A DNA stretch of 64,000 bases from positions 8,804,001-8,868,000 of the forward strand of contig CM022665.1 in assembly GCA_012295275.1 (NCBI GenBank). The letters are read 5' to 3'. The notes under the pieces are model-generated. The model was not told the DNA's origin, did not search any database, and was given only the letters and a program-made list of their open reading frames with translations. The position numbers and the translations under genes were made by a program. The stretch comes from Chrysomallon squamiferum. Lineage: Eukaryota > Animalia > Mollusca. Every line of letters begins with the position of its first letter. The stretch's first letter is position 1. Shown here piece after piece: positions 1 through 42,870 of the stretch.

Positions 1-649
1 AGGAATCTCTTGCATCATATGATCAAACTTTCAGTTACCTACCTCTGAAATGTACCTCGACCTTGACCTCAACCTCACGAAAAAATACCTCAAATGAAAA
101 CTCATTTCCTGCACCTGAAGTATCAGGTGCTCTGCAGCTACCTCCGTATTTACAAGACAGCTTATTCTTACCTAATGCAAGATACGCACTCAGGAATTCA
201 AACACTGAACCATATGACCTCTCAGTTAAGGGAAGCAACCTGACAGACAAGGGCAGCAGTTCGGACTACAGTTCTGACAAGCTGAACCTTAGTGTGGCCA
301 TGATGGTGGCCATGACCTCAATACAGCATACCTCAACGTCTGAAAACCATGACAAACCTCACACCATGGGCAGCGGCATGTACCTCAGTGAAATGCATGT
401 ATCGCCTTCAACATCCGTCTCTCAGGCAGGGTTTATTGGTGACAGAGGAAAGCAGCAACAACTTCAACAGCAGGGACCATCTGCCATAACTCAGGCCTCC
501 TCCAGTCCACACATCATGAGCATCCTAACAAGCAAGCAGACAGTGCCAGCAGGTGAACATCATGCTCATCCAGTGACTCTAGCACGATCCTCAGTGTCCA
601 CAGACAGTGGCATTTCGGTGAAGGAGAGTCTCCCAGACAGTCCCACTGG
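1..649 (+). CDS. Long Ser/Thr/Gln-rich coding exon, 5'-truncated by the window edge; probable alternative N-terminal (A/B) exon of the ER gene
   Basis: Frame is open from position 3 (ESLASYDQTFSYLPLK...) to 649, about 215 codons, with clearly higher GC than the flanks. It ends ACT GG|GTAAGT (donor 650) in phase 2, which joins in frame to the exon at 42536 (GG+G=Gly). Linkage to ER is inferred from strand and phase only. Confidence 0.7.
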
Positions 650-684
650 GTAAGTACTGATGCACATACACACATACTACTTTT

Positions 685-950
685 TTTTTCACATCTTATT
701 TGACAGACATCATTGATGTTTATACTTTACTAATAATTCTTAACATACTCTTTCTTTTCACATGCTATCTGAATAAAAATGCAATTTCACAAAGACTTCA
801 TTGACACTTACATACCTTTATTAATATTTCATAGAGGATAAAGGTATATAAACATTTCATTTTCAATGATAAATGTACATGATTTTCTTTTCATATTGTA
901 TCCAAATAAAGATAAATTTCACAAAGACCTCATAGACACTTATATACAAC
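685..950. repeat. Degenerate local duplication (~133 bp period)
   Basis: TTCTTTTCA...ATTTCACAAAGAC.TCAT.GACACTTA.ATAC at ~752 and ~885. Confidence 0.7.
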
Positions 951-1588
951 ATGCACATTATTCATTTTCATTTTTATTTTAGAAGATTTTGGTGCACTAA
1001 AAACTAGAAACCATTGCTGTAATAAAAAAAGGACAAACATAAATAATTACGTAGAGTTAAATATGTTTCAAAAATGATATCTTTGGAATTGGTTATTGAA
1101 TTCAATATGAATAACACAAAATGTTTCTGATTGAAATTTTAAAATTATTTAAGCATTAAAATACTATTATTGTTGTCACAAGATATTCATTTCTGTTTAA
1201 TGGTCATTATAATATGGCTAGCATGATAAACCTTACCTCTGCTAGAAAACCACACAAATATCCCAAGGAGAGTCTTTCATACTGCATGCAGAGGTTTAGA
1301 AATCTTCAGTTCCAGTGAATTTAATTTTTCTTTTTTAAATAGTAAAGAGTTAAAGCATGCATTATAATAATCTTCATTCATACTTCTATGTTTTGTCATT
1401 CATCCAAAATGACCTTTCTTTTTTTTTTTTTAATTACTGAAGAGAATTGTCAACAATAATTTTTTATTTTCTTTCACAACAACATAAAATTTATTTTTGT
1501 ATCTTTTATGTTATACTCAAAATTATATTGTATTTCTACCAAAATAATTGTATTTCATAAAAAAAAAATACACAAGATTTTTTACTTA

Positions 1589-1589
<1 letters not shown>

Positions 1590-1630
<41 letters not shown>
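1590..1630. repeat. Poly(A) tract
   Basis: About 40 consecutive A. Confidence 0.95.
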
Positions 1631-1632
<2 letters not shown>

Positions 1633-1932
1633 AGAAATAAAAAGATGTAGACAAGATGAATTGAAGCAAAAACAGAACAGGAATTTTGTTATGAATTCAT
1701 ATTTGCATTATGCATATAATGTAAATGATACATTGGATGTCATATCATATTAAACTTGTTTATTTCACTCTTGCTTACATATAATGTTTTACAACACATT
1801 TCATATGTAAAGTTATTTTTCCTGTGAAAACATTCAACAAAATAGTCTGTTCTTCACATGTTTAGTTACAATATTTTTGCTTTCAGAAATATTTATTTTT
1901 TTAAATTTATCTTGAAGTAATAAAATGTTAAT

Positions 1933-2015
1933 ATGAAAAATATATCTGATAAAAAATCTACAACAGAAAAAGAAGGTGACTTCAAAACATCTGTTATAGT
2001 TTACCATTTCAGCAG
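1933..2015 (+). CDS. Candidate alternative first coding exon (MKNISDKKSTTEKEGDFKTSVIVYHFS-R)
   Basis: ATG at 1933, 27 codons plus AG, then a perfect CAG|GTAAGT donor at 2016; phase 2 fits 42536. AT-rich, so chance is possible. Confidence 0.3.
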
Positions 2016-2339
2016 GTAAGTTTTGATTTGTTCTTGTTATGCTTTTATTTCAGATATTTCATTGTTTGTTCTATCAATGAAGAAACTGAGAAAATGATCT
2101 GAATGTGTTTCTGTTGATGCTATTTTTGTATAATCTTTTTATGTACTGGTTTCTCTAAATTGATAATTTCCTAATGAATGAAATATTATATAATTATTTA
2201 TTTTACAATACATTTATACAGCTTTAATTTTTGGTATAGACAAATAATTAGCAGGTGAATGTTTGTTAATATCTGAACAAATTGTTACCATGTAAGACAT
2301 CACTTTAAGTGAAGGTACAATTTGAGAAGATGCAGTCAC

Positions 2340-2750
2340 TAACTCTGCTATTTGGGTTACTCTTGCTGATTCACAACAAGGAATCTTTTATCTACATCCA
2401 GTGACAAACATGGAAGCACTTACCACAATATTTGATACACCAGTCATATAGAATACTGGTTAGAATTTGTGAATATTGGCTTAATGGAATATCACACCTT
2501 TTTGATGAAAAATGCTCTTGCAACACTTTAAGATTGAAAGTGTTGATACCACTCCATAAGCAAATGTTAGGAATAAAACTGACATTAGAGTATTTTTTTA
2601 CAATACAGGGAAGCATATACCATAGCCTTTGATATCATCCATAGAACAATGGTTATAATGGGGAAATAAGCTAGTGAGATCATTCAGAAAAATTAAACAT
2701 ATGACCATTGCTTTTCTGGCAAGCACTAAAATGCCAGGATGACATAAAAA
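2340..2750 (-). mobile_element. Two adjacent decayed SINE-like copies
   Basis: Shared core GGAAGCACTTACCACAATATTTGATACACCAGTC (~2412) and GGGAAGCATATACCATAGCCTTTGATATC (~2608); its reverse complement recurs at ~37720, ~43240 and ~43530. Confidence 0.6.
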
Positions 2751-5700
2751 TGTGTAAAGAAAAAGAAAAAAAGAATGTTTTTAATAAATGTAATTTTAAA
2801 TAATGTTTTAACAACAGTTTATTTCAGTATGCTTCATATTATTATTATTTGTATTTTTAATTTTATTTTTGATTTAATCAAAATGCTTGATGTTTTCAAT
2901 CCAAATAGGATTCTGCATTGTCTTTATTTTCATCATTCCCATTAGCCATTTGGCACAAGACATACACAGATATAAGAGGCTGAGTACAGCCTTAATCAGA
3001 GAAAGAAAGAAAAAAAATACTGCAGAAGATCTTTTTAAAGACATGATCTGGTGTGCACACAGTGTTAGCTAGATAACGTACAGAATAGCTAGTCTTGTTT
3101 TTGCTGTGCTTATTTATAAGCTGCTTTTAGAATATTAATTTAGGTGATATTTACGACTTCTAAATTTTTAAATATAAGAAAATCAATGTATAATTGATAC
3201 CTTAGTCATAAAGTCCAGAACTGTTTAATACAAACTAGAAAATATTTATCTGTTGCCAAGCAATGTTTTGTTCTTTTAAGCACCAAAAGTTTCCATTTTT
3301 GTTTATTTAGCAAAATGAATGTAATTATGCAGCATGGACAAATTTCAAATATTGCTGGTCTTTTAAAAAGTTAATTTCATTATAAAAAGCAAACAACATC
3401 TGATTAATAATTGTTTGTTCAATCAATAACTTATGCTTGTGTGAAATCATTTTCTTGCCTGCTTCTGTTCAATAAATATAAAAAACACTGTGATTATTAG
3501 ACCACAGAGCTCTGGTTAGAATGGGTTACATGCCAATAATTGTGTAGATTCAGAATAGATCTATAATGCACATTATTTCAGAAAAATGTTTTGAAACAGT
3601 AAATTTTAATCACTGTTGTTGTTGGTAGCAGGTTTGGTCTAAAGGACATCACTATTTGGCTATTTTCTGGTCCTTCAAGCTTTGAACTAATCTGCTAAGT
3701 GGTCACAAGCACACTGGGTGAGTTGGTGGTCAAAGGAATTACAGATAATTTCCCTCCGGTCAGCTATGGTTTGTCACTTTGGTCTGAACCTGAGTGACCT
3801 GAATCAAATTACTGCATAAAGCAGAACATCATTCTCAATTGCTTCAATTGCCTGTAGCCATGGCAACAGATGCAAAAGCTAATTACATATTTAAAAACAA
3901 AAATAAATATAATTTTAATGACACTTCAACAGTTTATTATCAGGGGTTAGGCAGAATATATTTAGACAGTTTCTTTGCAACACATTTTTCAGTTTAAAAT
4001 ATAACTGCTGTATATTTTTATGCCAATCAAATATTTTAAGTTCTTTTTTTCTTCTTCTTTTTTTTTTTCTTCTTTTCTGCTGCAGAATAAAATCAATTAA
4101 ATAGCATTAGATATCATGAAAGTTATTTGAAATTTTAGAAAATAGTTGCTATATATTTTGATATCAGTCTTGTGTTTTAAGCTTGAAATAGTTTTTCTGT
4201 ATGAGAATAAAATCACAAGAAAGTGTGAAAGGAAAATGACAAATATAAAATGTTTGACAACAAACATTCATGTGCTGAATTAAACAAACATTTTACAGGT
4301 TGAAACATGCAAGTATAAAACACAAACAAAATTTGCCCTGGTTTTTTAGTTAAATGGGATAGATTTCAGTAAACAAATAAATCAAACACTATTCTTTTCA
4401 TGGCATGGAGTAAGAACACCAAGATCATAATGATATTTTTAATTACAGCAGTACCAGTGATTTAATGAGGGTTGTATCCTTGGCAGTATTAGCATTTGTT
4501 TAAAAATTAAAGGTACTGTTGTTAATGTTACAGTCAATTTTATGAGGCTGGTGCCTCAGTTGTTATATTATTAATGTGTGTGTATAGTGACAAAAACAAA
4601 TAGATTAAATACATTTGGTATGCTCTAAATCTTTTTATTATTATCTTTTTTTTTATTTGTTGTGACACCAGTTCAATAATGAAAGACACAAATAATGGCA
4701 AAATTATGATTAAAATGAATCTATGATTCTTTTTCTTTACATTCAGAGGATTTTTTTGTTTTGCTAATTCACTTTGATAAACACAGTCAAAGCTGCCTTT
4801 GTCATATCTGTCATGCAGCAGCTTTTTCTATACAGTTCTTTGTTATATTCAAATCTTTGTTATTATACATAGCAGCTCTCTGTGAATATTCAGATGCATA
4901 TTACTGAAACATATCTGAAAATGATAATTGGGTTTTTTCTGTTTATTTTATAGATTTTCTCTATTGTTTTATAGCATAAAAAGTTCATACAGAAAAAAGG
5001 CCATAAAGTAGAAAGAAAGGAAAATTTGTAGGTTTATTTACTTATTCATTTTATTTTATTTTGTAAATACACTTTCTGATTTTAAAATTATTTTTTGCTA
5101 ATAAAATAGAGATGTTTTTTTGTTTTTGTTCTGCACTAAATAATCAAAATCTATGTTCAGACAGTTGCATTATTAGTAAAATAATTTTTTTAAAAATACC
5201 AAAGATACCATATTTTTTGTTTGTTCAAAACAGCCATTAATATGTTTTTTCAAATTTATCATTGCTTATACAGATGAATAAATGTCATAGAAGTACAGAA
5301 AAGTGTCATAAACACATGTTAGCCTTGACTTTTTAGGTTAATGAAAGTGTAACATAATCCCTGGAATATGTTATGTCAGAGGTTTCAGGGATATTATGTA
5401 CCATTTCTAAGAGGATGAAAATGAAGTGTCAAGCAAGCATTAATTTATGATAGAAGATTTTATAAAGTTTCTGGTGTATAAAAATTAATATATTACTGTT
5501 GTCTCTATGGTGTAGTGTACCCCATGATTTATTTAATATAAGTGAATTCAGAAAAATGTCAAAATGTTTTATCACCGTTTCTTTTTTCAGATGAAAGCAA
5601 AATAAAAGTTTTTTTCAAGATAAATTAATCTTCATTTAGTAGGAAACAAATATTAATAAAAATCCAAAAGAGTGAGATGGTTTAAAGGATTAGATTTAAT

Positions 5701-6384
5701 ATGTTTCTTTTTATTTATTTTTTTTGAATTTTTTATGTATTTTTTATAATTTTGTGCCAATGGTGATCGTTTACTTACAGCAACTCAGTTTGCCAAGGAT
5801 ATTTGTCAGCATTAAAAATGTTCTGAATAGGTTATTTGTATTAACAAAAATCTTGTATGTTAGAATTGATTTTGTTTTGGTTAAAGTAATATACCTTAGG
5901 TTTGTAAAAATTACATTTATAAGATCATTTTAAATATTTTGTTAATACTGGTTTATTTTAATATGCTACATATAACAATAAAATTATTTATCTATTATTA
6001 TTATTAACAACACCAGTGATTATTTTTTTCATCAACTTTTAAATTAAAACATTTGGTGTTTCTGATGTAAATAATTTTCAGTGAAACATGCAACATTATT
6101 TGCTTCTTACCAAAAGATCTATGAATATATATGCCTTTATGTATAATAATAAGTCAACCTATGAAATCAAACTATATTTTTTTTATACAAAGACACAGTA
6201 ATATATTCAGATGTTTTTCTCATTATTTTTCAGTTATTCTTCTGTTTTTTCATTGTTATTGTTTTTTCTTCTTTGAATACTAATGCAATGAACAGTTGGA
6301 ATATTTCTAATAAATATAAAAAATTGTTACATTAAAATTGCTTGGAATGGCACATCAAGAACTCACATTATCTGACAAATAAAT

Positions 6385-6650
6385 CAATATCATTTACCAT
6401 GCATAGGATTAGAATAATAATAACATATTGTGAGTAGGATAATAATAATACATAATGCAGAGGATTATTATAATAATAACACATAATTATATACACAGCG
6501 TTATGATAACCTATAACATGCATAGAAAGTATAATAATAGCATAACAAGAATAGGATTGTAACAATAACATATAACAGGCATTACAGTAATAACATATTA
6601 TATAGACATTGTAATAATATAACATGCATAGAAAGTATAATAATAGCATC
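6385..6650. repeat. Degenerate ~25-30 bp minisatellite
   Basis: Recurrent ATAATAATAACATA and TAACATGCATAGAAAGTATAATAATAGCAT (exact repeat at ~6514 and ~6620). Confidence 0.75.
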
Positions 6651-8061
6651 TATATATTTTTGTTTTGGAAAACAAAGTCTTTTAAGTTATAAATCAGTAT
6701 AAGATTGTCATACTGTTTAGCCAGTGCTGCAAATAATGAATACTTGTTAAAAAGAATGTCAATAATGATTATGATGATGCTGATGATAAGTTAAAGAATT
6801 TAAAAAAAAATAAAAAACAATAAAAAAATGAATGATATCAATAAATTCAATGATTTTGATACTTTTTTTTCTTAATACAAAACATATTTAATATAGGTGC
6901 TCAAATGTTTTATGTTTTAATTCTAATTCCATAGTATAGTGTAAATAACACAGTACCATGCTTACATACATACGTGCCTACATACATTATATTTATTGTC
7001 TTAAAACTTTATTTTATTTTGAATGGCTGTGTTAAATTTGCTCATATTGTATCTCATTAATATTTTTCAGTTTACAGTATTATTAAATCCTGTTCTTTAT
7101 TTTCCACCTTTTTGCTCCCTTACATTAATTAGTCTATTTCTTGCTCTGGCCACTGTTCCACTTTAATTTATTGAGGAACATTGTATGTCCTTTCATGGGT
7201 CTTGTTTTAAAAAGTTACTTGAAAAATATCTTGCTGGTTTTTAAGAGTAGTGCATGGAATGGTTGTAGAAATTTTTTTTCTTCATATATCATTGTTTTTT
7301 TACAATAAATATTTAATTTCTTAATATAGATTCACTGTCCCTCATTTGAAATCTAGAGGTACAGACCAAAAATGGACTATAGGATTTATTTGTTAAAAAA
7401 AATAATTGTATTCTAAATGGGTTATTCCACATTTCACAGAGACATACACATACACACAAAATTGTAGGCAGTATGATACGAAATCAAGTCTATGCAATAC
7501 TGCTGAATGTTAATGCTAAGCCATTAAATAAATATTTATTTGTTGGAGTGAATAAATATAATAATGAAAACAAATTATATAATTGTTTTTAATTTAGAGA
7601 AAAATACATCCATATTAATTTTGAAAAGATATGGGAGGTAACTCTTAAATACTTAAAAAAATATGCACAACTGAAGAAAATAATTTATTTTCAAAGGAGG
7701 AAATGTCATCAAGCACACAAAATATTAATAATAACAAAAGGCTGAATTACACTGGAAAAAAAAACAAAACAGTCTTCTTTATCCAGATACCTGCAATCTT
7801 ATTGTCAAATATATTTATATCACAGTGTAAATATGTTTAAATTTACAATAACAATTTTGTTTATATAACATGCATATCTGTGAAGTGAAGGTCAATAATT
7901 TATATTACACATGAAATAATAATAAAGAGAATAATAATAAAACATTTTTATATCTATTTATAATTTATGTTATGTAGTATTTATACATGAAACAATAATG
8001 ATAGTAATGAAGACAATTGTAAACATATTTATATCTCTCTGTCTATAATTTACATTTCATA

Positions 8062-8122: not shown

Positions 8123-8125
<3 letters not shown>

Positions 8126-11834: not shown

Positions 11835-12344
11835 TATTTAAGTCTTGGCAGACTATGTGCTGAGTTGTGCTTCATTGGATGTAGACACATTAAACATTAT
11901 GGAATAGGGGTCTAAGATGGATATTTTAAATGAATTTGCTTACATTATCACCTAATTTTTTTTCCCATTCCTACTGCTACACAGAAGAGCCAGGAGCTTT
12001 TTCTCTGCCATCAGATCATGTCAACTCTGGTATCTCTCAGCTTGCCATCTGTTCATGTTAAGGCTGACAAGGGGATCCTCCCATAAACAGTTTTAAACAT
12101 TAATATTTTCTTAAACTACAATACTGTCGCCACCCAGCAAAAAAAATTTTTTTTATAAATAAATGTAGAAAATGCCATTTCTTTGGCAGGTTGTTTATAA
12201 TACATATTTCAGGTATTAGTATATATGTTTTTCTATTTTCTATTGAAATAAATACCAGGAACTCAAATGTATATTAATCCTGAGTAATAGAAAACAAAAA
12301 AAGTATTTTATACTTACTTCAGTAATCATCTTTTATAGTTATGG

Positions 12345-13518: not shown

Positions 13519-14659
13519 ATCTTGTGAGACAGACATAAGTGAAATTGCCAGTTTGTAATTGCCAGTTTCTATTCATTTGTCGGTAATCATTTGTATTCTT
13601 CGGTGCAAAAATATTACACATTGGACTACTAAAATTTGCATTCCACACAGCACAAATAACATACACCAGACTATATACTGGCATGTCATTAACATGAAGT
13701 TATCCAAAAAAATAAAGTATAATAAAAATAATTTTTTCTTGATTTCTGTCATGTAGTAGTTATAACCAAACAGTCAGTATACACAAAACATTTTGAAAGA
13801 CAAAGTAGAAAATATTATTATTATTATTATTATTTGCTGTTTTCAGTAGTAAAAAAGAGTGCTAAATGTCTGTTTTGTTTTTGTTTGTTTTGTTTTCTCA
13901 AAAAGAAAGAAAATGAAATTTTAAAGTTGATGTTAAAGTTGTTTGTGCCAATAACAGCTGTTGTCCTTTCATCATCATCGTCGTCATCATCATTGTTTTC
14001 ATCATCATAAACAACTTTGTTGCCTGCATCACATTTCACTGATGATCAATTTATCAGTGTTATTAATTTTTTTTTTTTTTTTTTTTAAATTCAAGAAAAT
14101 TGTGCTGACAGATGTGTTATTTTTTTTTTTTGGTATAAAAATGTCAAATATATTTTTTTGATTATCATTATATTAGACACCATTAGAACTTATTATTAAT
14201 CTATAGCTAATCCCTTACAAACAAAATTATTTATTTATAAATGTTATGGAATTCTGTATTATTTATTTCATTTTTTTCTATTTTTAATTTTTTTTTTTAA
14301 GTCATACCTTTTAATGTGTATTTTAGTTCAAAATAGTTTTTATAAAGTGTAGTTTGCTAAATAACACATAAATATCTATCTGATTTTATAAGAACTACTA
14401 GACAGGTGTTTACAGGTTGTATCCACTTTAACAAGATACATAACTATACACCCACCTAATCCATTTTGGTGAATTTTAATAAGTTTCAAATGAAGATCAG
14501 ACATTGTCATCTAAGTTTATTGTCCAAGTTACGTAACCAGCAGCATGAATAATATTTCATTTGATGTAGACAGATTTCAGCCAATGCAGATTTATTTCAA
14601 TAATTTCTACTTTGTCTAGACAGAAAATAGTTTTTCTCTTTTGAAACCTAATCTTTGTA

Positions 14660-15277
14660 ATATGCACACAGTGTTGTAAACATACAGCTGCATATAGTGT
14701 GCAGCAAGGTGCAGTGCGCAGTCGCTGCATATCCACACTGCAGTGTGTTGAACACTTAAGTGTGTCTGTTGAATTGGTAGTCTAGACTTGACTCATTCAA
14801 ACTTGGAATCATGCAGACTCGTCCTTACACCAGTTATAACCATTGATCCAAAGTACTGCGGTCAGTTAGTCCAGTATCTGACCGCTGGTCATTAAGCCAG
14901 TGGGCCACCTGCTGGCAGACAGAGAGTATTTTTATCTGTGATCACACCACTGGTAATATCCAACATTTGCTATCCATGGTTAATAGAAGACAAAATGTGA
15001 AACAGCACAGAGGTTTTATTCATGTGTTTCTGATATGGTGGTGTGGCCCCAGTTTCCTTTTTTTTTTTTTTTTAGTTTGGGAAAAACTGATCAGACTGAG
15101 TCCTTGAAATAATAATCCCTGGCCTAACTGGTCTTTAAGCACCCATGGCCTCCCTCTTTATCACTGGCCATAGCTGACCAGTGGGCACTGGCTGGCCAGC
15201 CCTGCACTGTATTGTTCTGGCTGACCGTTGGGCAACTGGGTGATTAAGTGACGACTTGCCTATTGTTGGCACATGGA
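14660..15277 (+). promoter_or_regulatory. Candidate alternative promoter/5' UTR island
   Basis: Locally higher GC and retained CpGs, clustered TGACC/GGTCA half-sites, directly upstream of the candidate exon at 15278. Confidence 0.45.
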
Positions 15278-15354
15278 ATGGCCTCAGAGAGGATGCAAGA
15301 TGAAGACTTTGAGCATGCACTGTCCATTCTCAAAGTGTTGACTGGAACACACAG
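15278..15354 (+). CDS. Candidate alternative first coding exon (MASERMQDEDFEHALSILKVLTGTH-R)
   Basis: ATG at 15278 (GGAATGG context), 25 codons plus AG, CAG|GTAAGA donor at 15355, phase 2. It ends a GC/CpG-richer island (14660-15450) and the peptide looks protein-like. Confidence 0.6.
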
Positions 15355-16501
15355 GTAAGAAATGTTTTATAGTTTATTTACAGCTCAGTCAGCATATGGC
15401 TTCATTCTGCACTGACCCACATAAGTAACGGCCTGATCCAATAACCTGTGGCCCATAGTGATAGCTGTTATGTAATATTTTACACTAGAGACATTTCTCC
15501 TTTAATCTGGTAAATATAAAAAACACAGAAAGCACACATGACAGTAGCTAATTATGTAAAATCTTATTAGAAATTTTAATTATTGATACAAATACAGAAC
15601 ATTGTTAACATTTTTATTGTCCAGGCTATAGTTCTATTCTTAGTTCAAAAATTGCATAATAGAATTTGAAATGGGTGAATGCTTCTATCCATTTCAAGGC
15701 TAATATTCCTACTTGAGTTACACAAATTGAAATATTTCATAACTATAACCGTTTCACAGTTTATAAACACTTTTAACTTCAAGGTTTTCGTGAGTTTTTA
15801 AAACCTGTATTTTGTAACAAGGTTTTTTTTTTGGTGTTTTTTTTAAATTTAAATTTAAATATTTAAATAGAAATTTAAATCAGTTGTATTTTGTTTCATG
15901 TGAATTTAATAGTGCAGCTTTTTTTTTTGAGGTGATGTTTTCAAGTAACAACACTCAGATAAAAACAGGTGAAATCTGGAATAATTTGACATTGTTTAAA
16001 ATAAAATAGATAATTTCTAAGTGCATGTACTTTGTATCAAAGCTGTGATAATGAGCATGCAATTTTGTGTACTTGCTGGTACAAAGAGGTAAATAAATAT
16101 ACAGACAGACAGATAGACCTTGTAATTTATATTAAAATGTACTTAAGTTAAACCTCACCATCCTACCTCTGATTGTTTGACTTGAAGCCTGTTTAAATCA
16201 CACACACACACACACACACTGATACCTGATGATTGTACATGCAGGTGCATAAAAAAAAAAAAAAAAAAAAATTGATATAAAGACAAATTTACTTAAGTGC
16301 ACTTTATTCTATGCAGGTTTTGTGATAGATTTATGTTTAACATAGGTAATAATGTTAGTGTGTGCCAAATTTTCACATTTTGTTTTAAACAGTTGTAAAA
16401 ACAGGGGCAGGTCTGCAGTTTGAGAAAGGGAGTACAAATCATTGAGTTGAATTTGACTCTCAGTTGAAATGATTTCCATTACAACATAAAGGCTGTTGGT
16501 A

Positions 16502-18420: not shown

Positions 18421-20939
18421 ATAAATAAATAAATTTCCAATTAACTAGCTGTTTTTAATTACTTTCTAGTTGTGGATCCTTTTTAAAAATCTTTTAAAGT
18501 CTTAAGAATCCTTTTTGTCATTAAATAAAACATTAAAAGTAAAGTATCCCATTTGTAAGATATATGTGAGATGGTCATAAGTGAAGATATATAAAATAAA
18601 ATAAAAATTTGCATAGAGTAAATTTTATTTCACAGGATAATGATATCCTTTTCCTAAGTTATAAAATTTAAAAATATAGTTATTATAATGGGGGAAAGAA
18701 GTACAGACACCATAAATTACTGATTATTTTTGTGTATCTGGTTCTGGTTCTCCCCAAAACCAATATATTAAGAACCCCTGCACTAGTGTACATTTACTTG
18801 TTGTTGACAATAAACACAATATATTTTTTGTTTATTTATTGATCTATGTTTGTCTGAACTAACAAATAAAACATGCTGACATAACATTAAAATCCCCACA
18901 ACAGCCAGTGCAATATGCTTTAAATGTATTCCACAAGACCGTCTCTACATATACCTTCTGAGTTACCAACACCAAAAGATTAATGTACTTTTGAAGTCAC
19001 ATTTTCTTCTAAAAGGCAGATGTGTTAGTTGAAAATCTCCCATTGACTGAACGCAAGTCTGTGTGAAGACTTGTGAGATCACACCGACCCAGCAGTTATG
19101 TCATTATAACCTGCCCTTAACCTTCTTTTGTCATGCCATGCACATGGTACTTCATCACAAAAGTGTATTTTCATTCTCACAGGGAAGATGATGTGTAATT
19201 CGAGTATTATGAAATATTTAGAACTGCCATGATGCTGTATTGCTATCTTCAGGCACAATGATCAGGTATTGTGTTTTGGTTATCGCTGCCTTTTTGTCAA
19301 CCAGATATTTATAGACAATATTATCCAAACCCCTTGTCTTTTCAGTGACCCTTGTTTTGTATGCAGCTATAGTTGTTTGTTTTGGTTTTCTAATGCTCAG
19401 TAATAATATAATGATATTGCACTATTTAAAAAATTAGTTCTTATTTGATAACATATTCTATATTATACAATATTTATAAAGTTAAAAATAAATTGTACTT
19501 AATGAAGGTTATTATTTTTATACAGAAGTTTATGTTATTGTCTTAATATTAAACTGTATATAAAGAAAAAAAATTCTTTGTATTCAGAAAGATATATTGT
19601 AAATATATTATAACTATTTCTTTTGTATCAGCTGTTTTTTTTTTTTTTCTCTTTACTCTCATAATAAAAACTAATATATAGCAAATTAAAACTATAGGTT
19701 ACATACATAGAAATACATATGATACATAGCTGAATATCTCTATATTCTTATCAGTCTGTATTTTATGCATATTGGGATTATCCTTTTCATACATTAGACT
19801 TTGTACTTATATGATGCAAGGGCAGTAAAATGTGTTGAAATGTTTATGGTGATTTTTTTATATATATATATATATTTTTTTTAAATCTGCATTTTCAGTA
19901 TCTTCATATAATTAATTTTGTCAGTTTGTCTGTCTCTCTCTTTATGTGTGTGTGTGAGTGTGAAATAATTATTATTTCAGACTTTTTAACAACTGTAGTA
20001 TGTTTTAAATGCTTTTAAAAATTTTAATTCAGCATTAAAATAATTAAAACACTTCCATTTGAATTAAAAAATGTATGTTTTTTGTTTAACAATGAAGGCT
20101 GAAATGTCATTAAAATTCTGCACATAGACTGGTGCTGATATATCATATTGTAGACATTTAGTTTTGTCAGACTAACTTTGTCTGGAACAAGCAAATAATG
20201 CATTTAAATTAAAACATAATGTTCAAAAAACCCAAACAACCCCCCCCAAACCACCCCCCAAAAAACCCATCAACAACAATAAAACCCCCAAACAACTAAA
20301 TATTAAATATTTGCAGTTGTTATTTTAAAAATATTTAATTATTTATAATTTACAATTTTTTTTTAATTATAAAGATTAATTGGTTTGTATAATTATTAGT
20401 TTTTAAAATTTTAATTTGATTATTTGCATTTTTTTTTTTCACTGTCAAAATATTACTGTTACAAGATTATTGCAGATTATGAAATTATTGAAGCTTATGT
20501 CCTGAAATTAAGTCAATGTGTGCTAAAAGTACTTCAGTTTATGCTTAAAGCAAACATTCGTGTTAAAAAAAAAAAATAAAAAAAAAACTAAGAAACTATT
20601 AATTTTTATTTTATTTTATTTCTTAAAATCTTTTTAGAGTTTTGTTGATAAAATTGTCACATTTCTGACTAAGAAAAAAAAAAAAAAACTGCTGCAGACC
20701 CAGCTGTCCTATTCAATATTTTTTTTTCATTTAAATTTTTTTTTTTTTTAATTTTTTTTATCATGCTTTTTGAAATAACTTTTATCACTGAGTATTTGTA
20801 TTGTATGTTTAATAACTAAAATGAAATCATTCTTTCATCAACAGTAATATCTTCTGCATGAGTAATTTCCTATTACAAAATCTTTTGGACATCACAATTG
20901 CCTGTTTCCCCCATATTTTTAGTTTTTTTGTTGTTGAAT

Positions 20940-26014: not shown

Positions 26015-27510
26015 TCCAGACTCACAGATGTTCTCTGACTATACAGACAGTGCAAACTTACAAATATTCTCTGACTGTGTAGACTGGTCAGACCCATAGG
26101 TTTTCTCTGACTATACAAACTGCTCAGACTGTTAGATGTTCTCTGACTATACAAACTGCTCAGACTGTTAGATGTTCTCTGACTATACATACTGCTCAGA
26201 CTGTTAGATGTTCTCTGACTATACAGACTGCTCAGACTCATAGATGTTCTCTGACTATATAGATTAGCCAGACTCATAGGTTTTCTCTGACTATACAAAC
26301 TGTTCAGACTGTTAGATGTTCTCTGACTATATAGATTGGCCAGACTCATAGGTTTTCTCTGACTATACAAACTGCTCAGACTCATAGATGTTCTCTGACT
26401 AGACTCCTCAGACTCATAGATGTTCTCTGATTATATAGACTGTTCAGACTCACAAATGTTCTCTGACTATACAGACTGCTCAGACTTATAGATGTTCTCT
26501 GACTAGACTCCTCAGACTCATAGATGTTCTCTGATTATATAGACTGTTCAGACTCACAAATGTTCTCTGACTATACAGACTGCTCAGACTTATAGGTTTT
26601 CTCTGACTATACAAACTGCTCAGACTCATAGATGTTCTCTGATTATATAGACTGTTCAGACTCACAAATGTTCTCTGACTATACAGACTGCTCAGACTTA
26701 TAGATGCTCTCTGACTATATAGATTGTCCAGACTGTTAGATGTTCTCTGACTAGACTACTCATACTCAAATACATTCAGTGACTGTGTTGACTACACAGA
26801 TTCATTGATGTTCTCTGTGAAAACTGCTTAGACCCAGATATGGTTTTTCTATAAACTGTCTAGACTCACAGATGTTCTCTATGTTTATTGCTCATACTAA
26901 CAGATATTTTCTAACCATGTACTCAGTCTAATAGATGTTCTCTGTGCAGACTATCCAGACTAATAGACATTTTCCAACTGATCACTCACATATGTACACT
27001 GCTCAGATTCATAGACATATCTGTGTAAACAGATGGTTTCTATATAGATGTCCATACCTACAGCTCATGTGCCCAAGATAGATTTCTGTTCAGAATCCAG
27101 ACATATAGATTATGTGCTCTAGACCCACATTATCTGATTAAATAGACAGACTAGACCCATAGATTATGTACTAAAGACATACATGATCTGATTGAACAGC
27201 TAGTCCAGATTTGCAGATGGTCTGAATAAATAGACAGTCATGACTCATAGATTATGTGCCTGAGATAGAAGCAATCTCACTTGGCAGATAGTCAAGACTT
27301 ACAGACTGTGTGTCCAGAACAGACTTTGAACAGTCCTTACTCATAGATTATGTGCTTGAGATATATATGATCCCACTCTTTAGATAATCAAGACTTATAG
27401 ATTATGTGTCCAGTACAGATTCAATCTGACTATGGAGAGTTCCCAGGCTCACTCATTATGTGCACTATGATAAGAATCCAAACTCATAGATTATATAGCT
27501 AGATAGATGT
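26015..27510. repeat. 36 bp minisatellite grading into diverged longer units
   Basis: Unit CTCAGACTCATAGATGTTCTCTGACTATACAGACTG, about 20 well-conserved copies to ~26760 (some 32 bp), then decayed GACTCATAGATTATGTG units. Confidence 0.95.
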
Positions 27511-32040: not shown

Positions 32041-32369
32041 ATAATATTTATAGACAATAAACAAAATATTTTTTTAAAATAATTTTTGTTAACAAGACAT
32101 GACATAACACAAATAAAAACTAATAAAATAAATGAATAAATTATGTTAGTGGATAAAAGACTACCAATTACTTAATCCTTTAACTTTTTTTTCAACCTTT
32201 GTAATGATGTTGTAAATAAGTAAATTGAGAAATACAACTAAACTGAACGATCGATAAACTTATGTAAAGAATGTATTAACCAAAAAATGTCTGTGTACTT
32301 TCAAAGAAGTCTTAGCTGTAAATTATTCAAATTATTAAATGTTTAATAATATTTTAAAAAGTTATGCAT

Positions 32370-32883
32370 GCTATACGCATATTTCTGCGCAGACACGTGA
32401 TATGTTAGGTTCATCTTCTCTCTGCTGTCGGTTATTTGATAAAACACGTCACTTCATTCTGTGTCACTTTTCTTCTACTCTCTTTCAACTTGTGCAAGTG
32501 CTGCATATCACTCACAGATTCACAGGATAATCACTTAAAAAAAGAGACTGCACCCGACTAGGAAGTATCGTGCACCCATGTGTAAAAAGCAACAGAAAGT
32601 GACTTTTTCAAATACTTAACAAAATCTACTCAGTTCTACAGCCATTCTGTTTGCATTGACCTTTTTTTATTTTTTATTTTTTTTTATTTCCAAACGAAAG
32701 CACAAAAAGCTCACGTGACTGGGGTCAACCCTGCCTGCACTATCTGGTGCAGTGTACACATGTATATGTGCAGTTGGAGTAATGGCTGCACAGTTGTGTC
32801 TGGGACTGGGCTCTGATGCTGGGGACTAAGACAGACAGGTCCCACATCTGTCAGCACCCATACCTGCACATCATAGGAACTGA
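32370..32883 (+). promoter_or_regulatory. Candidate alternative promoter/5' UTR island
   Basis: Retained CpGs; CACGTG at 32394 and 32712, CACGTC at 32445; short uORFs; ends at a strong donor. Confidence 0.5.
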
Positions 32884-32903
32884 ATGACAGATTGTCCATC
32901 AAG
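32884..32903 (+). CDS. Candidate alternative first coding exon end (MTDCPS-R)
   Basis: ATG ACA GAT TGT CCA TCA AG|GTATGT, phase 2, at the 3' end of a CpG-retaining island with E-boxes. A second donor GTAAGT lies 4 nt downstream (32908). Confidence 0.5.
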
Positions 32904-34854
32904 GTATGTAAGTTAAGCTAGCAGACAGAGCCAGCTAGCCAGACAGTTCTGTTTGTGTCTCTGCTGCCCTCAATTTCAACATGCTGGCAGACAGCCAGTT
33001 TATTTTAGGTTATGAAGCAACTAGATTAAACAGTCTATTTATATTGCTCTGATAGTGGTAATGTTGTACTGTTAGCTGCATTGCTTTTTATTTCTTGTCA
33101 TTTTACAGACATGTCTGGGTTTTAAAAAAAAAAAAATTGTTTAGGTTTTTTTACATGTACTGACTGTAAAACATACAAGTTGTGCATTGAAATATCAGCC
33201 ATATTTTTTTTACCACTATTATGTAATATGGCGTGGTTTCATTGTCCTCGACCTTGTGGTAACTGCATATTTTGCACTTGGCAGATGAGAAACTGTACTC
33301 AAGAGTGTTTGCAGACATAAGGCAAAAGGCATGCATTTCTTTAACCCACAGAAATATTAAAATTTAAAAAGAAAGAAAAAAAAAAAAAAAGAATTAAAAA
33401 AATGAACAGATTAATATAGATAATTAAGAAAATTAATTATTTCTCAAAGATCCTATGATAACTGTTTATGTGATGAAATCTCAAACTCCTGGGTTGCTGT
33501 TTTGTTTTCACACAACAAAAATATACATACAGTTGTCCTCATCCTAAGCCGCTCATTTGCAAAGTATTTTTTATAAACATTGAGTGATAACACTGCAAAG
33601 TAGGAAATCAATTTTTTAACAGTATAATTCATGCACATTCCTAACTGTTGTACCAAAATTCAGAATTTAATGATTTTTGGTTCAGTAATATCGCTGAACG
33701 GAGATTTAAATAATCAACAATATATATATTGTAAGTTTATTAGCTATCATGTGTGGAATATTACCAGATACTGTTAATGCTATAAAATTTAAACAAATTA
33801 CACATAAATTTTACTTGCTCCAGTTTTTCAACATTTAATTTCTTAATTAAAATTAAATTCTAAATATAATTTGAATTAAGATATGCTATCTGTTATAACC
33901 GTTTCTTCTGACAAAAATATTTACATTTAACTAGAAATACAACAAATATAAAACAGAGTAACTGTATCAATGTCTGACAGTTTCTTTTGCTAGAAAATAC
34001 TTTTGATTAAACAATTTATTTTAAAAATGTAAGCTGCACCATTTTCTAAAATTTAAATTTGGTACAGAATGATGGAAATTTATGAAACACAGTTTGAAAT
34101 GATAGAAACTGACTTAAAAACAATTAATAATATTCCATAAAGTCATTATAAGTTAGGCTTTTAAAATAATGGAGAATAAGTTATCTCTCTTTGACTGAAC
34201 TCTCAGATTGTTTACTAGACTTGCTTGAAGAAATTCTTGATGTAAGCTAGGTTAAAATTGCACACTCCTACACCCACGCAGTAATTACAGAATCTGTTAC
34301 TATTATTATATACATCACCAGATCACACTGGTTGTAATTGTAATAGAATTTACTTGTCTTGAATGTAAAACAATGATAGTTATTTTATTACAAATTATAT
34401 CTCTTTATAGTTGTTAACTGAAATTAACAGATTATGTGTCGAAGATTCTGTTGTCATAAGTTCAGTCTCTGAAATAATTTGTTTCCCCATATATGTATAT
34501 AATATATATTTTTTTAACTTCAGTTTTTTCAAAATTCAAGATTATGTTTATCCTGTTTTCATTCATTAACACTTATGTAAACCGTATTTGTTGCTAAATA
34601 CTATTTTTTTATTATTATAATTGTTATTTATTTATTTGTGTATTGTTGTTATATATTTTTTAAGTATCTAAATGGAAAAGTATAATTGTGTCTCTGTCAG
34701 AATTGGCTAAATAGCTGTGCATTTTAAAAAGGTTCAGATTGTTAATTTTTTTAAACTTTTCAGTGAATACATATGAAATTAATGTGACCTACAGTTTCTA
34801 GCTGATATTTGTATTTCCTAAAATATTTTCAGGTTTGTTAGCATTTATATATTA

Positions 34855-35680: not shown

Positions 35681-36266
35681 AAGGAACACTAAAATGCCAT
35701 TTTGATGTTCAGATGAGATTATAAATAACTCTTTTCTACTGGTGTGCATGCATTTGTTATCTAATACATTATTTCTGAAATCATTATAATACAGGTTTGA
35801 AATGTAAACCACACAAAAGTTTTGTACACAAACATATATTGTGCACATGTGTGCATGTATATATCAGTGTTCATGTACTCATTTCATAAAAGAAACAGGA
35901 TGAAGGTACACAACAAGGCAGTTTCTGCCTCAGCTTTTGTTGGCTGCTGTTTGTTTTTTGTTTGTTTTTTCAAATTACATAAGAAGTAGTTTGATTTATA
36001 CTCTACTATATTTATCATCTGTGAGAATGTGTGACCTACTGTGCATAAGAATGTGAAAACGATGTGGTAGTATTGATGTTGGTGTCCTCACTCTATGGGT
36101 CACTGACTGGAAAACTCTGTCACTGGTGCAGTCAGTCGATAGCGTGTATGCAGTCTAGGGCCACTAATGCACTACACTGTATTGTATTGATGTCTGTCTG
36201 TGTACAAGATGCATTAGCTTCCTAATGCTCTGTTTGCCACACTGAATCATGACAAGTTGCACATGA

Positions 36267-36307
36267 ATGGAGCATGGAACAAAAACGTATGTGGCAAGAC
36301 TAGGTGG
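36267..36307 (+). CDS. Candidate alternative first coding exon end (MEHGTKTYVARLG-G)
   Basis: ATG at 36267, 13 codons plus GG, then GTAAGT at 36308, phase 2; ends a GC-richer block 36020-36310. Confidence 0.4.
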
Positions 36308-37617
36308 GTAAGTGAAATTTATGAAAACATGGTACTTTGTTATGTAGTATAAAGAATGCTCACCTGATGGGATGGAAGGTTCATACTTAAATTGAAAAAT
36401 TTCATATTTCAGCAAATGTCTGATGAAAAAAAAAAATTTGTTTAGAAAAAGTATTATTCTGTGTCTGGTGAGATTTTGTATTAGACTGGCTTTTTTTGCA
36501 CAATCTGTAACACGTATTATTGCTGTTGTTCCTTTGACTATTATTGTTGTTGTTATTATTATTACTGGAGATACAGATATGTCTATAATCATATATTTAT
36601 CATTAATAACATCTTTACAATTATCACAATTATTATTATTATCATTAATTTTGTTGTTATTACTTTTACTATTCTTGTTGCCATTTTTGTATCATTTCTT
36701 CATTTTAAGTAACTCATGACTCAGTCATTTTTAATAATGTTTTAAATTGATTTTTCATCTGAGACTTTATTGCATTTTGTACCCAACTCTGTTAGAGGTA
36801 ATTCTTGTACTTGCTGGAACCATTAGTCTTACTGGCACAGTTGTATTTCCGTTGCAAAATAACTCCAGGTGTTCTAACTGATTTCACAATGAATGACCTG
36901 AATAGTGTACAAATTGTCTTACAAGAAAAGATAGATCTGACCTAATGACTCTATTTGCAGTAAAGATAACATCTTAACTATGGTAATAATGGTTGTGATG
37001 TTCATATAATGATACTGCAGCTATTAGATGTCAAATCATATTATGTGGCAGACACGATGAGATCACATTAATATCAGAAAGATATCCCATTTGTTACAAA
37101 TAAAATAAATACTGGATTTCCATGGCCTCTGGAATATTGTGGAAAATGCTGTTTATTCTTGAATCATGTTAAAAAGTCCTGGATTTTCTTCAGTTAATTA
37201 TATATATCCCTAAAGATTTTCATATTTTCTACAGCCATTAGTATGGTTTTTATTTCATTTCTAATTTATGCCATTGTCTAGTCAGTGGTAACAAATATTT
37301 TACTGTTTAAATTATCCACCAGACTTTTATACATGTGTTGTTATTTATAAATTTCTGTTTTAGTAAAGTTTTTTTTTAAATTTTATTATTATTATTATTA
37401 TTTTAATTTTATTTATTTTAAAAAAAAAAAAAAAGAAGAAAAATCATTATATTTTCTTAAATTGTGAATAACCTGGAAAATGATAATCAAAACATGGATG
37501 AAATATGAAATTATTTTTAAACAATTTTAAAAACATCAGTTATCATTGTCCTTGTCAATATTTTAAATGAAGGTAATCCTGTGGCTCCAACCATAATGAC
37601 TGGCTTAACAATGGTTT

Positions 37618-37815
37618 TCTCTAGCTTAGTGGGTAGATCGTTGGTCTGGGTTATGGGATCAGTCTTTTATTGATCACATTTTGGACTATTTCTCATTCCA
37701 GCCATTATCTCCACAAAAGGTATATAAAACAATCTGGTAAGTACTGCCCTGTCTATGACAAGGTGAATTTCAAAGATATCATATTACTGAGCAGTAAGAA
37801 TTGTTCATGAATGAT
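37618..37815 (+). mobile_element. Decayed SINE-like copy with a tRNA-like head
   Basis: Begins TAGCTTAGTGGGTAGATCG (pol III A-box-like), followed by GGACTATTTCTCATTCCAGCCA and the family core. Confidence 0.6.
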
Positions 37816-39183
37816 GAAATGATGATTAAAAGAAAATAATAATAATAAAATAATTTAATAAATTAAATTGAAAAAACAACAACAAGCCCAGTGGATTTCA
37901 AATTCATATTGAAGTATTGCAGTGTTGTTTAAGCTGACATACATTTGTGATTCTTCTGACAATGCTAGAATAAATCAGAGCAAATTAATGCATCCTGTAT
38001 GCTGTTCCCTCATTACCCCAAAAATTACAACATTTAACTGTACTTTTTTGTTGTTATACTTTGTTATTAATAAAGATTGGATGGCAAAAAGAAGAACTAA
38101 TACATTAACTTGAAGTATTTAGACTATTTCTTTGAATCACCCAAGGTACATTTTAACCCTAACTGAATTGGACATAGCCTTGCAAGATTTGCTGAAACAG
38201 GATAAATTTGCCTTAAGCAAGCAAAGAATTGGGTAAATTCATCAAATTATACTTAACATCATGACATGTGCCAATTTAGCTTCTTTTTTTTTTTTTTCCA
38301 TTTTTTTTTCATTAGGAAGTCATAAATAATGTCAAAAAAAAAAAAAAAAAAAAAAAAATGAAAATAATAATAATAATAATAATTTTTTTGTTTTCTGTTT
38401 CCATCCCAGATTATTCAGAAGAGTGTTTCTGTTTTAGTTATTTGTTTTGACTTGGAATTATTTATTATAGGCCTTCATAGTAGAAAGTGGGTAAAAAAAT
38501 TAATATTTCACTAAAATATTTTTGTTATTTACCATAACATTAAATTATGTATTATACTTTTATAACAGAAAATAGGTTTAAAAATATATTTTATGCCTAA
38601 ATATTACATTTTTTTAAATTATTTTTTTGAAAATCAAATTAAAGATACTTTTATGGTAGAAAGCAGGTAAAAGAATAAATATTATGCTCAGATAATTTAT
38701 TTCTTTTAACATCAGATTATAGATAATTTTACTATAGAAAGCTTGTGGGGTGGGGGAATCAATAAAAAAAATATATATGTGTACTTTCTGTAATTTTTAT
38801 TTTTATTTTTATTTTTTTTATTATTTTTTTTTAAATCTTAAAAAAAGAAAAGAAGGAAGTCACTAGAAAGGTTACTATAGCAACCCAGTCAACAAACAAA
38901 AACAACTAAATCACTTGAGTTTTAGTGTACATAATTAAGATTAATAATTAAATTGTACCAAATAATTTAATTTTTTGTTGATTACCCTACTTTTTCTATA
39001 ATATTTGGAAAAAATGAATCAAAACATAAAAATATTTTTCTTTTTTAGTTTTTTTTTAATCATAGCTATAGTCTTTTACTTAGAAACTGTGAATTTACTT
39101 GTTTGGTATTTGGTGGAATTGAATGTTTGTAAAAATTGTTACATGTATGAAAATATATTTGATATTTAATAGCTGATCAACAG

Positions 39184-39226
<43 letters not shown>

Positions 39227-39614
39227 TTATTATTTGTTTTTATTTTTTATTTTAATTGATTTAAAAAATATATATTTGTGTATTTGTTTATTTATTTATT
39301 TATTTTGTTGTTTAATTCTTGTTTAATTGTTGTTTAGTAACCTATGTTAGGTCACTTATTTCAGTAAATGCTTCATCAATACACAAAAAAACATTAACAG
39401 ATTGATCTATATTTTGAACAATATACTTTTGTAAGATTACAAGTAACCCATTATTTTTCTTTGTTTTGTTCTCAGAAGTATGATTTCAGTAATGAAATAT
39501 TTTTTCTCTGTTGAATTCTTTATCTAAAAAAACATTTTAAAGTATTTATTTATAGTGAAAATAAAAAAATATTAACCTTTTTGGACTTAAAATCTACATA
39601 ATGTGATAATAGGT

Positions 39615-39760
39615 TATGGTTCAGTGGTTATATGGCTTGCCTGGAACATCTCATCTGTAGGATGAGTTCCATTTTCTTTACAGTTTAAAAAAAAAAAAAA
39701 TTATTTCCCATTCTGACCAAAAACCATTGGATTCCAGTATACTGACATGATTAAAATTCT
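39615..39760 (+). mobile_element. SINE-like head fragment
   Basis: GGTTCAGTGGTTATATGGCTTGCCTG head, then TATTTCCCATTCTGACCA matching ~37686. Confidence 0.35.
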
Positions 39761-42535
39761 GACAATCCTGAATTGAATGTGAATATGAAAGTGTTTATAC
39801 TTACTAAGTCACCTAGTACACATTTAATGGTTCACCTATGGCTCTGAATAATTTTATGATGGTGATTAAGTAATTACCTTTATGATGTTGGTTTTAGATG
39901 GCCTACAGATTTATCAAAGTTGACATATATATTTTATATATATATATTTTTTATTTTTTTGTATATGTTTTGATATGTCATGTACATATGTGTGTGTTGT
40001 GTGCTTTCTTTTCTAACATGTGTTGTAAATAAAATCTCCTTTGGTGCTAATTTAAAAGAGTAGATTATGGAATGGCAGAAGTATGTTCTCTTTCTTATAT
40101 CATCACTAATCACAGACTGTGTATTTTAACATAAATTTATTACTCATTATTTGAAAATGTTCTGAGTTGTCATTAAACGTGTTCACTCAGTAAATTATAT
40201 CAACTTCGAGGTAATATTTTAACTGAATTGGGACAGTGCCCTTAACAGTAAGTTTGTCAGATATGAAGGAATTTAAATTTGTAATTGTAATACATCTGAA
40301 CATGGCATATTTATGCAACTGTTGCACTATAACTTGGTGTATATAACATACCAGATATATAGTTCATTGTAGCCATGGTTGCTTCAGATTATATGTGATG
40401 TCGCTATTAATTTAATAAGGTAGATAATTTGAATGTCAAGGCTTTATGTTGTGTGTTATGTTTGACATTCAGTAGACAGTGATAGACAATTAATAAATTT
40501 ATTTTAATAATGTCTGTAACAAAAAAAAAAACCCTAACCAATAAACATTTTTTATTGTACAGTAATGATGTTTAGTGACATTTATATAAGTTTATTTAAT
40601 AATTTGTTAGCTGTCTTAAGTAACTGTGATTATAAAAAATTCATCTGTTTTGAGATATGGCAATTAAGAAGTGTAATTACATTTGGCTTTAACAATAGTA
40701 ATCTGCCAGTTACATTCAACTTAACTGATAATAATGTTCCAGTTATCTTTAAAGATAAACATGATTAGTTATAAACAGAACTATGGTTAAATTGTAAACA
40801 GTCAGTCCCCAAGGATACCAACATCTGGAGTTAACTAAACATTTTGAATCCTCTTGCACTTTTCTCATTATTAAAGATCATACAGACACTTTTAATAAAG
40901 ATTTTGTTTAAGCTAAAATTTATTAATTTCTATTAACAGTATGTTCCAAGTTGTGTTAATCTGTTGTTAACAGAAGCTTTAGAAATTAACAGCTTTTAGC
41001 TCTTCCATTAATGAATATTGACTGGAGAATTTAATGTGATTTACTTGGTGGTTCTAAGGAAGAAGATGGTGGACATTATTAAAGTAATGTCTACTAAGTC
41101 AGACCTCAGCAGACTAGCTTGAATTGTTTTAGTCTGGTTCTATTCATATTAGAAGCAAACATACTCATAATATTGCCATACAAAAACACAAATAATAATG
41201 TGCTGATGTTACAAAGCAAAATAAGTTCATGCATTCTCATTTTTCATACAAAAATAAATGAATGGGATTTGTATAACAAAACATGTCCATAGTCTCTCTC
41301 TCACACACACATAATTACTTCTACATGAAGGTAACAGAATGTGCTTTTGTAACCACAACTGTATAAAATTTTAAAGTAAATGCAAATTTAACACAGCATT
41401 ATTACAGTACAAATGACTGCAAGACAGATGGTAAAATTAAAAAGATAAGTAATTTTTCAATATGTTAAATTGATCTTCTGCCAACTACCAAAAATTAATC
41501 TTTAACAATATATATTAGCTGTGGAATTGCTTTAGCTAGTGATTATAAAAAAGCTTGAAATAAACTGACAATTTATTAATTATTTCATAAAAATGAGCAG
41601 TGAAATTTTACTGATCATTAAAATAATCAGAAGTTTATGTTTTAAGACAACCCTATGAATGTAAAAAGAAATATTTTTACAAGTTAACAAATAAATCAAA
41701 ATAAAAAGAAACAACTACAATCCCAAAAGACTTCCAGTCATCTGAGTTTAATAACAAATGCTTTCTTGTAACACAGAAATGATGTTTTAACTGGTTTTAA
41801 AGGTTAATGTTATCACAGGTGTTTCTGGCTAAGATTATTAGGCCATGTAACAATGTTTTTCAGACTATAGAGGTGTTATTTACATAACACATTTGAAATG
41901 TAATACTTTTTATCTGTAACAACTTTTCTTCATTATTAAACACATACACTTTGAGTTTCTGTAAATCTTGTACATTTGACTTATCAAGCTACTGATTAAA
42001 CCAATTAACTAGATATGCTGTGGTTATCTCCACTTATGTTACAGTGACATCTATTTCCTTTTCTGTTCTCATTATCATATTCTGTACTAATATATATATA
42101 TATATAAAAAAGGCGAATTTATCCCAAAAATTATATCATAAATATCTTCTTTACTTTTAAAAAAAATAATTTCAGAATGTGATATTAAACTAAACAACAA
42201 CTAAACTCCAGCATCTACAAAAAAAAATGATTTACCATCAAATTACAATTTAATGTTTTGAATGGTAGTTTAACAGTACAGATGTATACAGTTAATACAT
42301 TTTGTTACAGGAACTTTTGTTTTATGGATATACTGTGAAATTGAAAATAAGTCCAGCTCATTAATCAACATCATACATTCGTAAGTCAGTTGACTGTCAA
42401 AAGTATTTTTTATTTTACTTTCTAATTACATCAATGTTTTTGCTTTCTCAGGTTTTTGTGTGTCGTTTTTTCCCCCCAAATATTTTGATATTTTAAAAAT
42501 TACGAATACTTATAAATTGACTGTGTATTTTACAG

Positions 42536-42870
42536 GGATACGGCTGGTGCCAAGTCTCCAAAGGAAGACGGTTGCCTGCTTGGTCCAGGTGAATGTATGC
42601 AGGTGGCCGGGTTGCTGCCAGTCAACACACATGCTCAGGCTCCAACATCTACGACACCAGTGGGACTCCGTTCCAACAAGGAAGATGGCCGAATTGTAAT
42701 GCCTGGCCTTGGTGAGTGCTTGCAGCTGCCAGGGCTGGGGATAGCCAATTCACACAACCAAGCACCAACTTCAACAACACCCGAAGGCCTGGAGTCCAAG
42801 TTCAGACCACCACTAAGCATAGAGCCTCATGGGTTGATAGACGAAAACAAACCTAAACAAGAGATATCAG
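42536..42870 (+). CDS. ER: Estrogen receptor, common A/B-domain exon
   Basis: TTTTACAG| acceptor, open frame DTAGAKSPKEDG...KPKQEIS-G, donor G|GTTAGT (phase 1) in frame with the zinc-finger exon. Internal ATG at 42597. Confidence 0.85.

Follow-up and report, generated by a model that had tools for sequence, protein, structure and literature searches.

Shared acceptor, several starts: two conserved and possibly corepressor-docking N-termini at the estrogen receptor gene of Chrysomallon squamiferum

The stretch of Chrysomallon squamiferum DNA analysed here (the window; 64,000 nucleotides, assembly GCA_012295275.1, contig CM022665.1, positions 8,804,001 to 8,868,000 of the forward strand) carries a gene that, judged from its sequence, is a mollusc estrogen receptor (ER; NR3A) on the plus strand. 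Its eight shared coding exons span 42536-56739 of the same strand (Table 1) and encode a constant DNA-binding domain (DBD) and ligand-binding domain (LBD). Here, we describe how alternative upstream exons are joined to the first of these shared exons, and what the resulting N-termini might do. We have very high confidence in the gene identity, in the contig ends at 650, 15355, 15790 and 19266, and in the conservation of a long N-terminus and of a 25-residue leader.

The Pfam family zf-C4 was matched above its cut-off in two exons and Hormone_recep in two, one of these above cut-off. The last coding exon is 80% identical to the ER of the abalone Haliotis and 70% identical to a limpet ER; the LBD of the oyster ER is its best match in the PDB, the best 60 of 108 PDB matches are all ERs, and all of its protein relatives whose names state a family are ERs. 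The P-box of the gene, EGCKA, is presumably of the ER type, and by these matches the predicted protein is closer to ER than to the estrogen-related receptor. In the last exon, a Tyr and a Phe align with a His and a Leu of the human ER-alpha chains, sites that we take to be His524 and Leu536 in human residue numbering. The change l536F together with h524Y or a415W is reported to suffice for constitutive activity (PMC3886901). The last exon carries this sufficient Tyr and Phe pair, which makes constitutive activity likely, and we consider it highly probable that the LBD acts constitutively, as that of the oyster does. The quoted passages of that source treat the LBD, and neither 'N-terminal' nor 'isoform' occurs in it.

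Five sequencing runs contain the shared exon, and four of them are recorded as RNA and belong to one study. Evidence on the upstream joints comes from assembled RNA contigs of these four runs (X1-X4), examined over 42380-42960. Loose contig ends before 42536 map to exon end 649 in X2 and X3 (2/4 runs), to 15354 in X1, X2 and X4 (3/4), to 19265 in X1, X3 and X4 (3/4) and to 15789 in X1 (1/4). Each of them lies at the offset predicted from the bases shared with the intron end, and GT comes next in the genome. The contigs of these joints carry 26-30 letters on the shared side, below our bridging rule of 31 letters, as would be expected where a 31-mer graph branches. The downstream joint from the 42536 exon to 45084 was present in all four runs and bridged under the same rule in three. 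We regard the support for joints from 650, 15355, 15790 and 19266 to 42536 as strong at the level of contigs, not of reads. No loose ends from 2015, 32903 or 36307 were found in the four runs; as contigs show presence and not absence, and a filter removes some records, we do not count this against these donors. All four runs share a contig break at 42534, which points to another partner ending in [AGT]AG, possibly beyond the window, or to some other branch; listed depths rise across this break, and depth cannot rank the forms. In addition, X1 holds one unspliced intron contig at 42415-42535, with a single G>C difference at 42523.

The first-pass annotation of the window had proposed a cassette of five phase-matched leaders feeding one ER acceptor. 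Alternative N-termini on a shared acceptor are borne out by contig ends and homologues; five equivalent matched leaders are not. The RNA instead supports at least four donors from three upstream exons, two of these donors being on the original list, and two leaders are conserved. The outcomes that had been named as refuting the proposal were checked, and we found that more than one donor is used, that two leaders are conserved and that exon 1-649 is part of the ER.

Table 1 Features of the estrogen receptor locus, in window coordinates.
Feature	Position	Strand	Evidence and remarks
3' part of large coding exon, long N-terminus	1..649	+	Open frame 3-647, start upstream of window; PxDLS at 210-224; donor GTAAGT 650
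27-codon candidate leader	1933..2015	+	Donor GTAAGT 2016; AT-rich; no CpG in upstream 600 nt; no homologue found
GC-rich island and exon for 25-residue leader	14633..15354	+	ATG 15278; Sin3-like pattern 15317-15340; donor GTAAGA 15355
Read-through extension of the 15354 exon	15355..15789	+	Donor GTGAGT 15790; 7 open codons, no in-frame ATG; loose end in X1 only
Exon end absent from the original list	19183..19265	+	Donor GTATTG 19266; in-frame ATG 19258, 2-codon leader; loose end in X1, X3, X4
CpG-rich stretch and candidate exon, 6-codon leader	32200..32903	+	ATG 32884; donor GTATGT 32904; both CACGTG sites of the window
GC island, two candidate ATG/donor pairs in frame with shared exon	35997..36307	+	36263 with 36304; 36267 with 36308 (GTAAGT); ATGs 4 nt apart, donors 4 nt apart
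Shared A/B exon	42536..42870	+	Phase-2 acceptor; internally duplicated; in-frame ATGs 42597, 42699; covered in 4/4 RNA runs, continues into 45084 exon
DBD exon 1	45084..45200	+	Pfam zf-C4, E 4e-16
DBD exon 2	49382..49495	+	Pfam zf-C4, E 2.5e-13
Hinge exon	50603..50721	+	tblastn with Haliotis ER; frame
LBD exon 1	53092..53272	+	tblastn with Haliotis ER
LBD exon 2	53977..54118	+	Pfam Hormone_recep; tblastn with Haliotis ER
LBD exon 3	55589..55719	+	tblastn with Haliotis ER
Last coding exon	56456..56739	+	Best PDB match oyster ER 4N1Y, E 8.9e-29; aligned to human ER-alpha chains

Exon 1-649 had been taken for a first exon of leader size. It proved to be the tail of a large coding exon: 210-490 residues precede PxDLS in homologues, the motif stands at residue 70 of the part seen here, and an X2 contig extends 1008 letters before the 649/42536 joint, more than the window contains. 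Among 2152 candidates, its peptide has one relative, a Haliotis ER (35% identity, 207 aligned columns, pairwise E 2e-13), and Haliotis ER forms of 854-859 residues have the same junction. A profile search with the exon recovered 13 representatives, all starting PPPKKPK and including land snail, periwinkle, pearl oyster and mussel; the long start MPPPKKPK is found in abalone, limpet, Babylonia, Littorina, land snail, oysters, pearl oyster and mussel. We show that PxDLS is kept in 19/23 long regions, against 0.6 expected from composition, and an LLxxLF-like helix in 20/23; since the 23 sequences are related, these counts express conservation, not 23 separate events. The four regions without PxDLS have looser variants of it. 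No PxDLS occurs in the short pre-DBD regions of the mollusc ERs compared. PXDLS motifs of LCoR recruit CtBP, according to a passage on that corepressor (PMC9139824), and on balance we favour the view that the long form would recruit CtBP through its own motif. LCoR and RIP140 likewise combine PxDLS with an LLxxLF-like helix; they differ in being separate proteins, and the likeness is one of short motifs only. In the open literature we found no ER isoform with a CtBP motif of its own, and we know of no other such isoform.

The second conserved start is the leader read from the ATG at 15278, which shares 16 of 22 positions (73%) with Patella isoform X3. When the 713 phase-2 frames that end at a GT site are ranked, donor 15355 comes first for the leaders of the limpet, of three oysters and of one land snail. 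For twelve other mollusc leaders no named donor came first, the best ranks (2/713 for Reishia at 36308, and 4 for Patella X6 at 19266) being at chance level for about 70 comparisons. In the Mytilus gene model the order is long exon, leader, shared exon. The PAH2 (Sin3) motif of HBP1 is given in one passage as A(A/V)x-phi-phi-xx-phi (PMC7948954). This motif fits one of six leaders exactly and all six when Leu is allowed at place 2, a widening made after seeing the data; in 15,266 pre-DBD residues we counted 13 instances of the widened pattern, and 11 of these belong to leader copies. The Sin3-interaction domains of HBP1, TET1 and SAP25 show an Ala/Leu helix pattern that the leader may share; they belong to separate proteins without wider homology, and at one place the TET1 motif is small in side chain and the leader bulky. 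Searches of Pfam, PDB and Atlas with the leader gave no match. That the leader forms a Sin3-binding helix is put forward only tentatively, and we lean somewhat against it. A reading as a ubiquitin-interacting motif (UIM), which includes a Ser, was rejected, that Ser being missing from the leader. The read-through form ending at 15789 is likely either to start its product inside the shared exon or to be non-coding.

All five donors of the first-pass annotation (650, 2016, 15355, 32904 and 36308) and the acceptor at 42536 were found as described, with phase-2 open frames of 215 or more, 27, 25, 6 and 13 codons, and four of the five lie in GC-richer DNA, the exception being 2016 (GC 0.23, outside any island). 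Recurrence and island context had been offered as the argument for the cassette, and these fared differently. Among 44 sites with the three claimed hexamers, donor 650 excluded, a phase-2 ATG frame precedes 12, where the background rate is 0.195 (P 0.13); at the hexamer sites with G at -1 it precedes 4/7 (P 0.03, post hoc). The phase match is thus weak. The link between donors and islands is stronger, with thresholds picked post hoc: three of the seven sites with G at -1 have an upstream 200 nt with GC of at least 0.44, a level reached at 1.7% of positions (P about 1.5e-4), and the reverse-strand control gave 1/9, located in a coding exon.

The remaining upstream candidates differ in promise. 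The 27-codon leader at 1933-2015 is probably a product of chance. The stretch 32200-32903 is the CpG-richest of the 42-kb region, with 11 CpG in 600 nt against a median of 1, and is likely a promoter with a first exon; its donor at 32904 scores best of 72 [AGT]AG|GT sites, 36304 being third. Because it ends in [AGT]AG, ranks at the top and lies behind the CpG-richest 600 nt, 32904 fits the contig break at 42534 best, which lends it indirect support; donor 36304 would fit it too. At 19183-19265, the left edge is an acceptor-like site only, and contigs extend 444-1240 letters upstream of the joint. CpG/GC islands lie at 14701-15300 and 32201-32800, and we think it probable that the upstream exons start from separate promoters. 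Further GC islands without a matching exon lie at 3608-3875 and 11929-12139; a donor, G|GTGAGT at 3718, is not preceded by an ATG frame and may close a non-coding exon. Sites like the estrogen response element (ERE), each with two mismatches, were seen at 14860 and 15214 near the 15354 exon and at 19077 and 19099 near the 19265 exon (2 seen against 0.37 expected, and 2 against 0.15; P 0.04 and 0.01, uncorrected), with none at the other two islands. Feedback through these sites is possible.

Other observations concern the shared exons and the wider window. Over 42544-42790, the shared A/B exon holds an internal duplication of ~123-130 nt, with two unit copies ending in the conserved QAPTSTT; in contrast, the shared exon of Haliotis has one copy and is not internally duplicated. 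The intron end at 42415-42535 aligns weakly with a 43-residue insert that precedes the shared exon in Haliotis X1-X3. Within 44390-45110, the acceptor and the opening ~22 nt of the first DBD exon are repeated in tandem (44496, 44611, 44952) upstream of the real acceptor at 45084; RNA loose ends fit the 45084 copy in 4/4 runs. An additional micro-exon was suspected in the hinge and became unnecessary once a donor was found at 50722. Between their two zinc-finger exons, Haliotis and Patella isoforms (P0002, P0008, P0011) carry four extra residues, which suggests that a second splice site is used within the DBD. Bradybaena (P0020/P0031) and Nucella (P0022/P0042) show two ER clusters each, on contigs that differ in length, possibly duplicated ER genes. 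At 26017-26753 there is a 36-bp tandem array of ~21 copies, with a minus-strand repeat frame of 147 residues and no Pfam match above cut-off. An Rfam search gave 0 matches.

Comparison with other molluscs places this layout in a wider context. The ERs of oyster (CgER, PDB 4N1Y), Aplysia, Reishia, Haliotis and Patella have the same domains, exon order and constitutive-type pocket residues, and RefSeq lists long and short isoforms. For Patella vulgata, RefSeq holds seven isoforms with six N-termini on one common junction, the same as here, and oyster ERs include both long and leader forms. The layout is therefore old among molluscs: two of its starts are conserved, and several short ones are particular to lineages. 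Alternative A/B domains and multiple promoters are common in nuclear receptors: in PR-A/B, EcR-A/B1/B2, HNF4A P1/P2 and RORgamma/RORgamma-t, the promoter used decides which A/B region precedes an unchanged DBD and LBD, and the variable part is not homologous to the mollusc ER N-termini. The mollusc isoforms themselves are already in automatic annotations. We found no report of two conserved, repressor-like alternative mollusc ER N-termini or of their motifs in the open literature, a search that left mostly outside it the subscription papers on cloned mollusc ERs, which possibly cover 5' variants.

Taken together, we propose that three kinds of form (long, leader and near-leaderless) are made from this gene, all with the same constitutive DBD-LBD. 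The long form would bring in CtBP and the leader form perhaps Sin3/HDAC, and the forms with a tiny leader or an internal ATG (19265, 15789 and probably 32903) would be plain activators, so that the ratio of forms would tune ERE-driven output and replace hormone as the control. We give about an even chance to this explanation as a whole, namely at least four donors to one exon, two conserved and likely corepressor-docking N-termini, and a choice of 5' exon that sets the activation of a probably hormone-independent receptor. A further-reaching version is doubtful, though worth stating: after the loss of hormone control, two N-termini older than the snail-bivalve split may turn a hormone-blind ER into a repressor or damper by isoform, with the corepressor dock part of the receptor itself, through CtBP in the long form and Sin3/HDAC in the leader form, possibly with feedback through the ERE-like sites.

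Several points weigh against this proposal. All RNA comes from a single study and as contigs only, with the short shared-side stretches noted above and no starts, strands, levels or tissues. The published Sin3 motif, unchanged, fits only 1/6 leaders; leader amphipathicity beats shuffles (P<0.05) in 1/6; AlphaFold predicts a helix over leader residues 8-23 at a pLDDT under 50; and no Sin3 ligand came up when the leader alignment was searched against PDB and Pfam. BLASTP of the window leader against an oyster ER gave no match, and the bivalve link therefore rests on the 713-frame ranking, the leader alignment and the same gene place in the Mytilus model. A cloned oyster ER (P0059) begins with this leader, and mollusc ERs are described as activators in the passages available from the literature. 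Finally, the 15354 and 19265 exons have acceptor-like sites in front of them, at 15076 and 19183, and may therefore be internal and not first exons; read from exon 649, both reach a stop. The same stops, like the unspliced intron contig in X1, would suit the view that only the long form matters and that the rest reflect splicing noise or poison exons in one long intron. We consider this very improbable: limpet, oysters, land snail and mussel all keep the protein sequence of the 15354 leader together with an ATG of its own, and cloned oyster ERs start with a leader of this type.

An ordinary multi-promoter gene is a possible though not a probable account: the 5' exons would mainly set tissue and level, all forms would activate, and the motifs would serve coactivator binding by activation function 1 (AF-1), localisation or turnover. 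Human ESR1 offers a precedent, having many promoters and upstream exons, the latter non-coding (PMC5472281). Vertebrate ESR1 likewise joins many 5' exons to one acceptor, but the human upstream exons are non-coding and the receptor is hormone-gated, whereas the mollusc alternatives are coding, one of them lengthening the protein by some 400 residues or more in homologues. Of the four donors with RNA support, two contribute no real leader, and 5/6 Patella N-termini are short, four of these without a match among the 713 window frames, which fits this account; the retention of PxDLS in otherwise divergent long regions, and of the leader pattern in limpet, land snail, oysters and mussel, points instead to specific partners. 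It is less probable still that the leader inhibits its own receptor, as the A domain does in ER-alpha of trout and human, with a helix that binds the LBD groove and competes with coactivators. The pattern has I-x-x-L-L in limpet and I-M-x-L-L in land snail, and the spacing of the NR-box is close to I-x-x-L-L. The long and short forms of trout ER-alpha, which reportedly arise from promoter use, are akin to our proposal in that an N-terminal piece restrains activity. This inhibitory A domain acts through the C-terminal region, as a passage on the trout receptor states (PMC7029290). Against such self-inhibition, where LxxLL calls for Leu, a polar residue and Gly or Asp stand in the leaders of oyster and mussel, and the invariant leader residue is Ala, more like Sin3 ligands. 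The predicted complex of the Patella P0011 leader with its own LBD, modelled with alignments not used, scored 0.02, from which we draw no verdict either way.

If the proposed switch between isoforms is true, most cloned mollusc ERs would represent only one side of it, and quantitative PCR of the shared exons would pool forms that may act oppositely. How an always-on mollusc ER is controlled bears on the evolution of steroid receptors and on whether endocrine disruption is well monitored with the mollusc ER as its marker.

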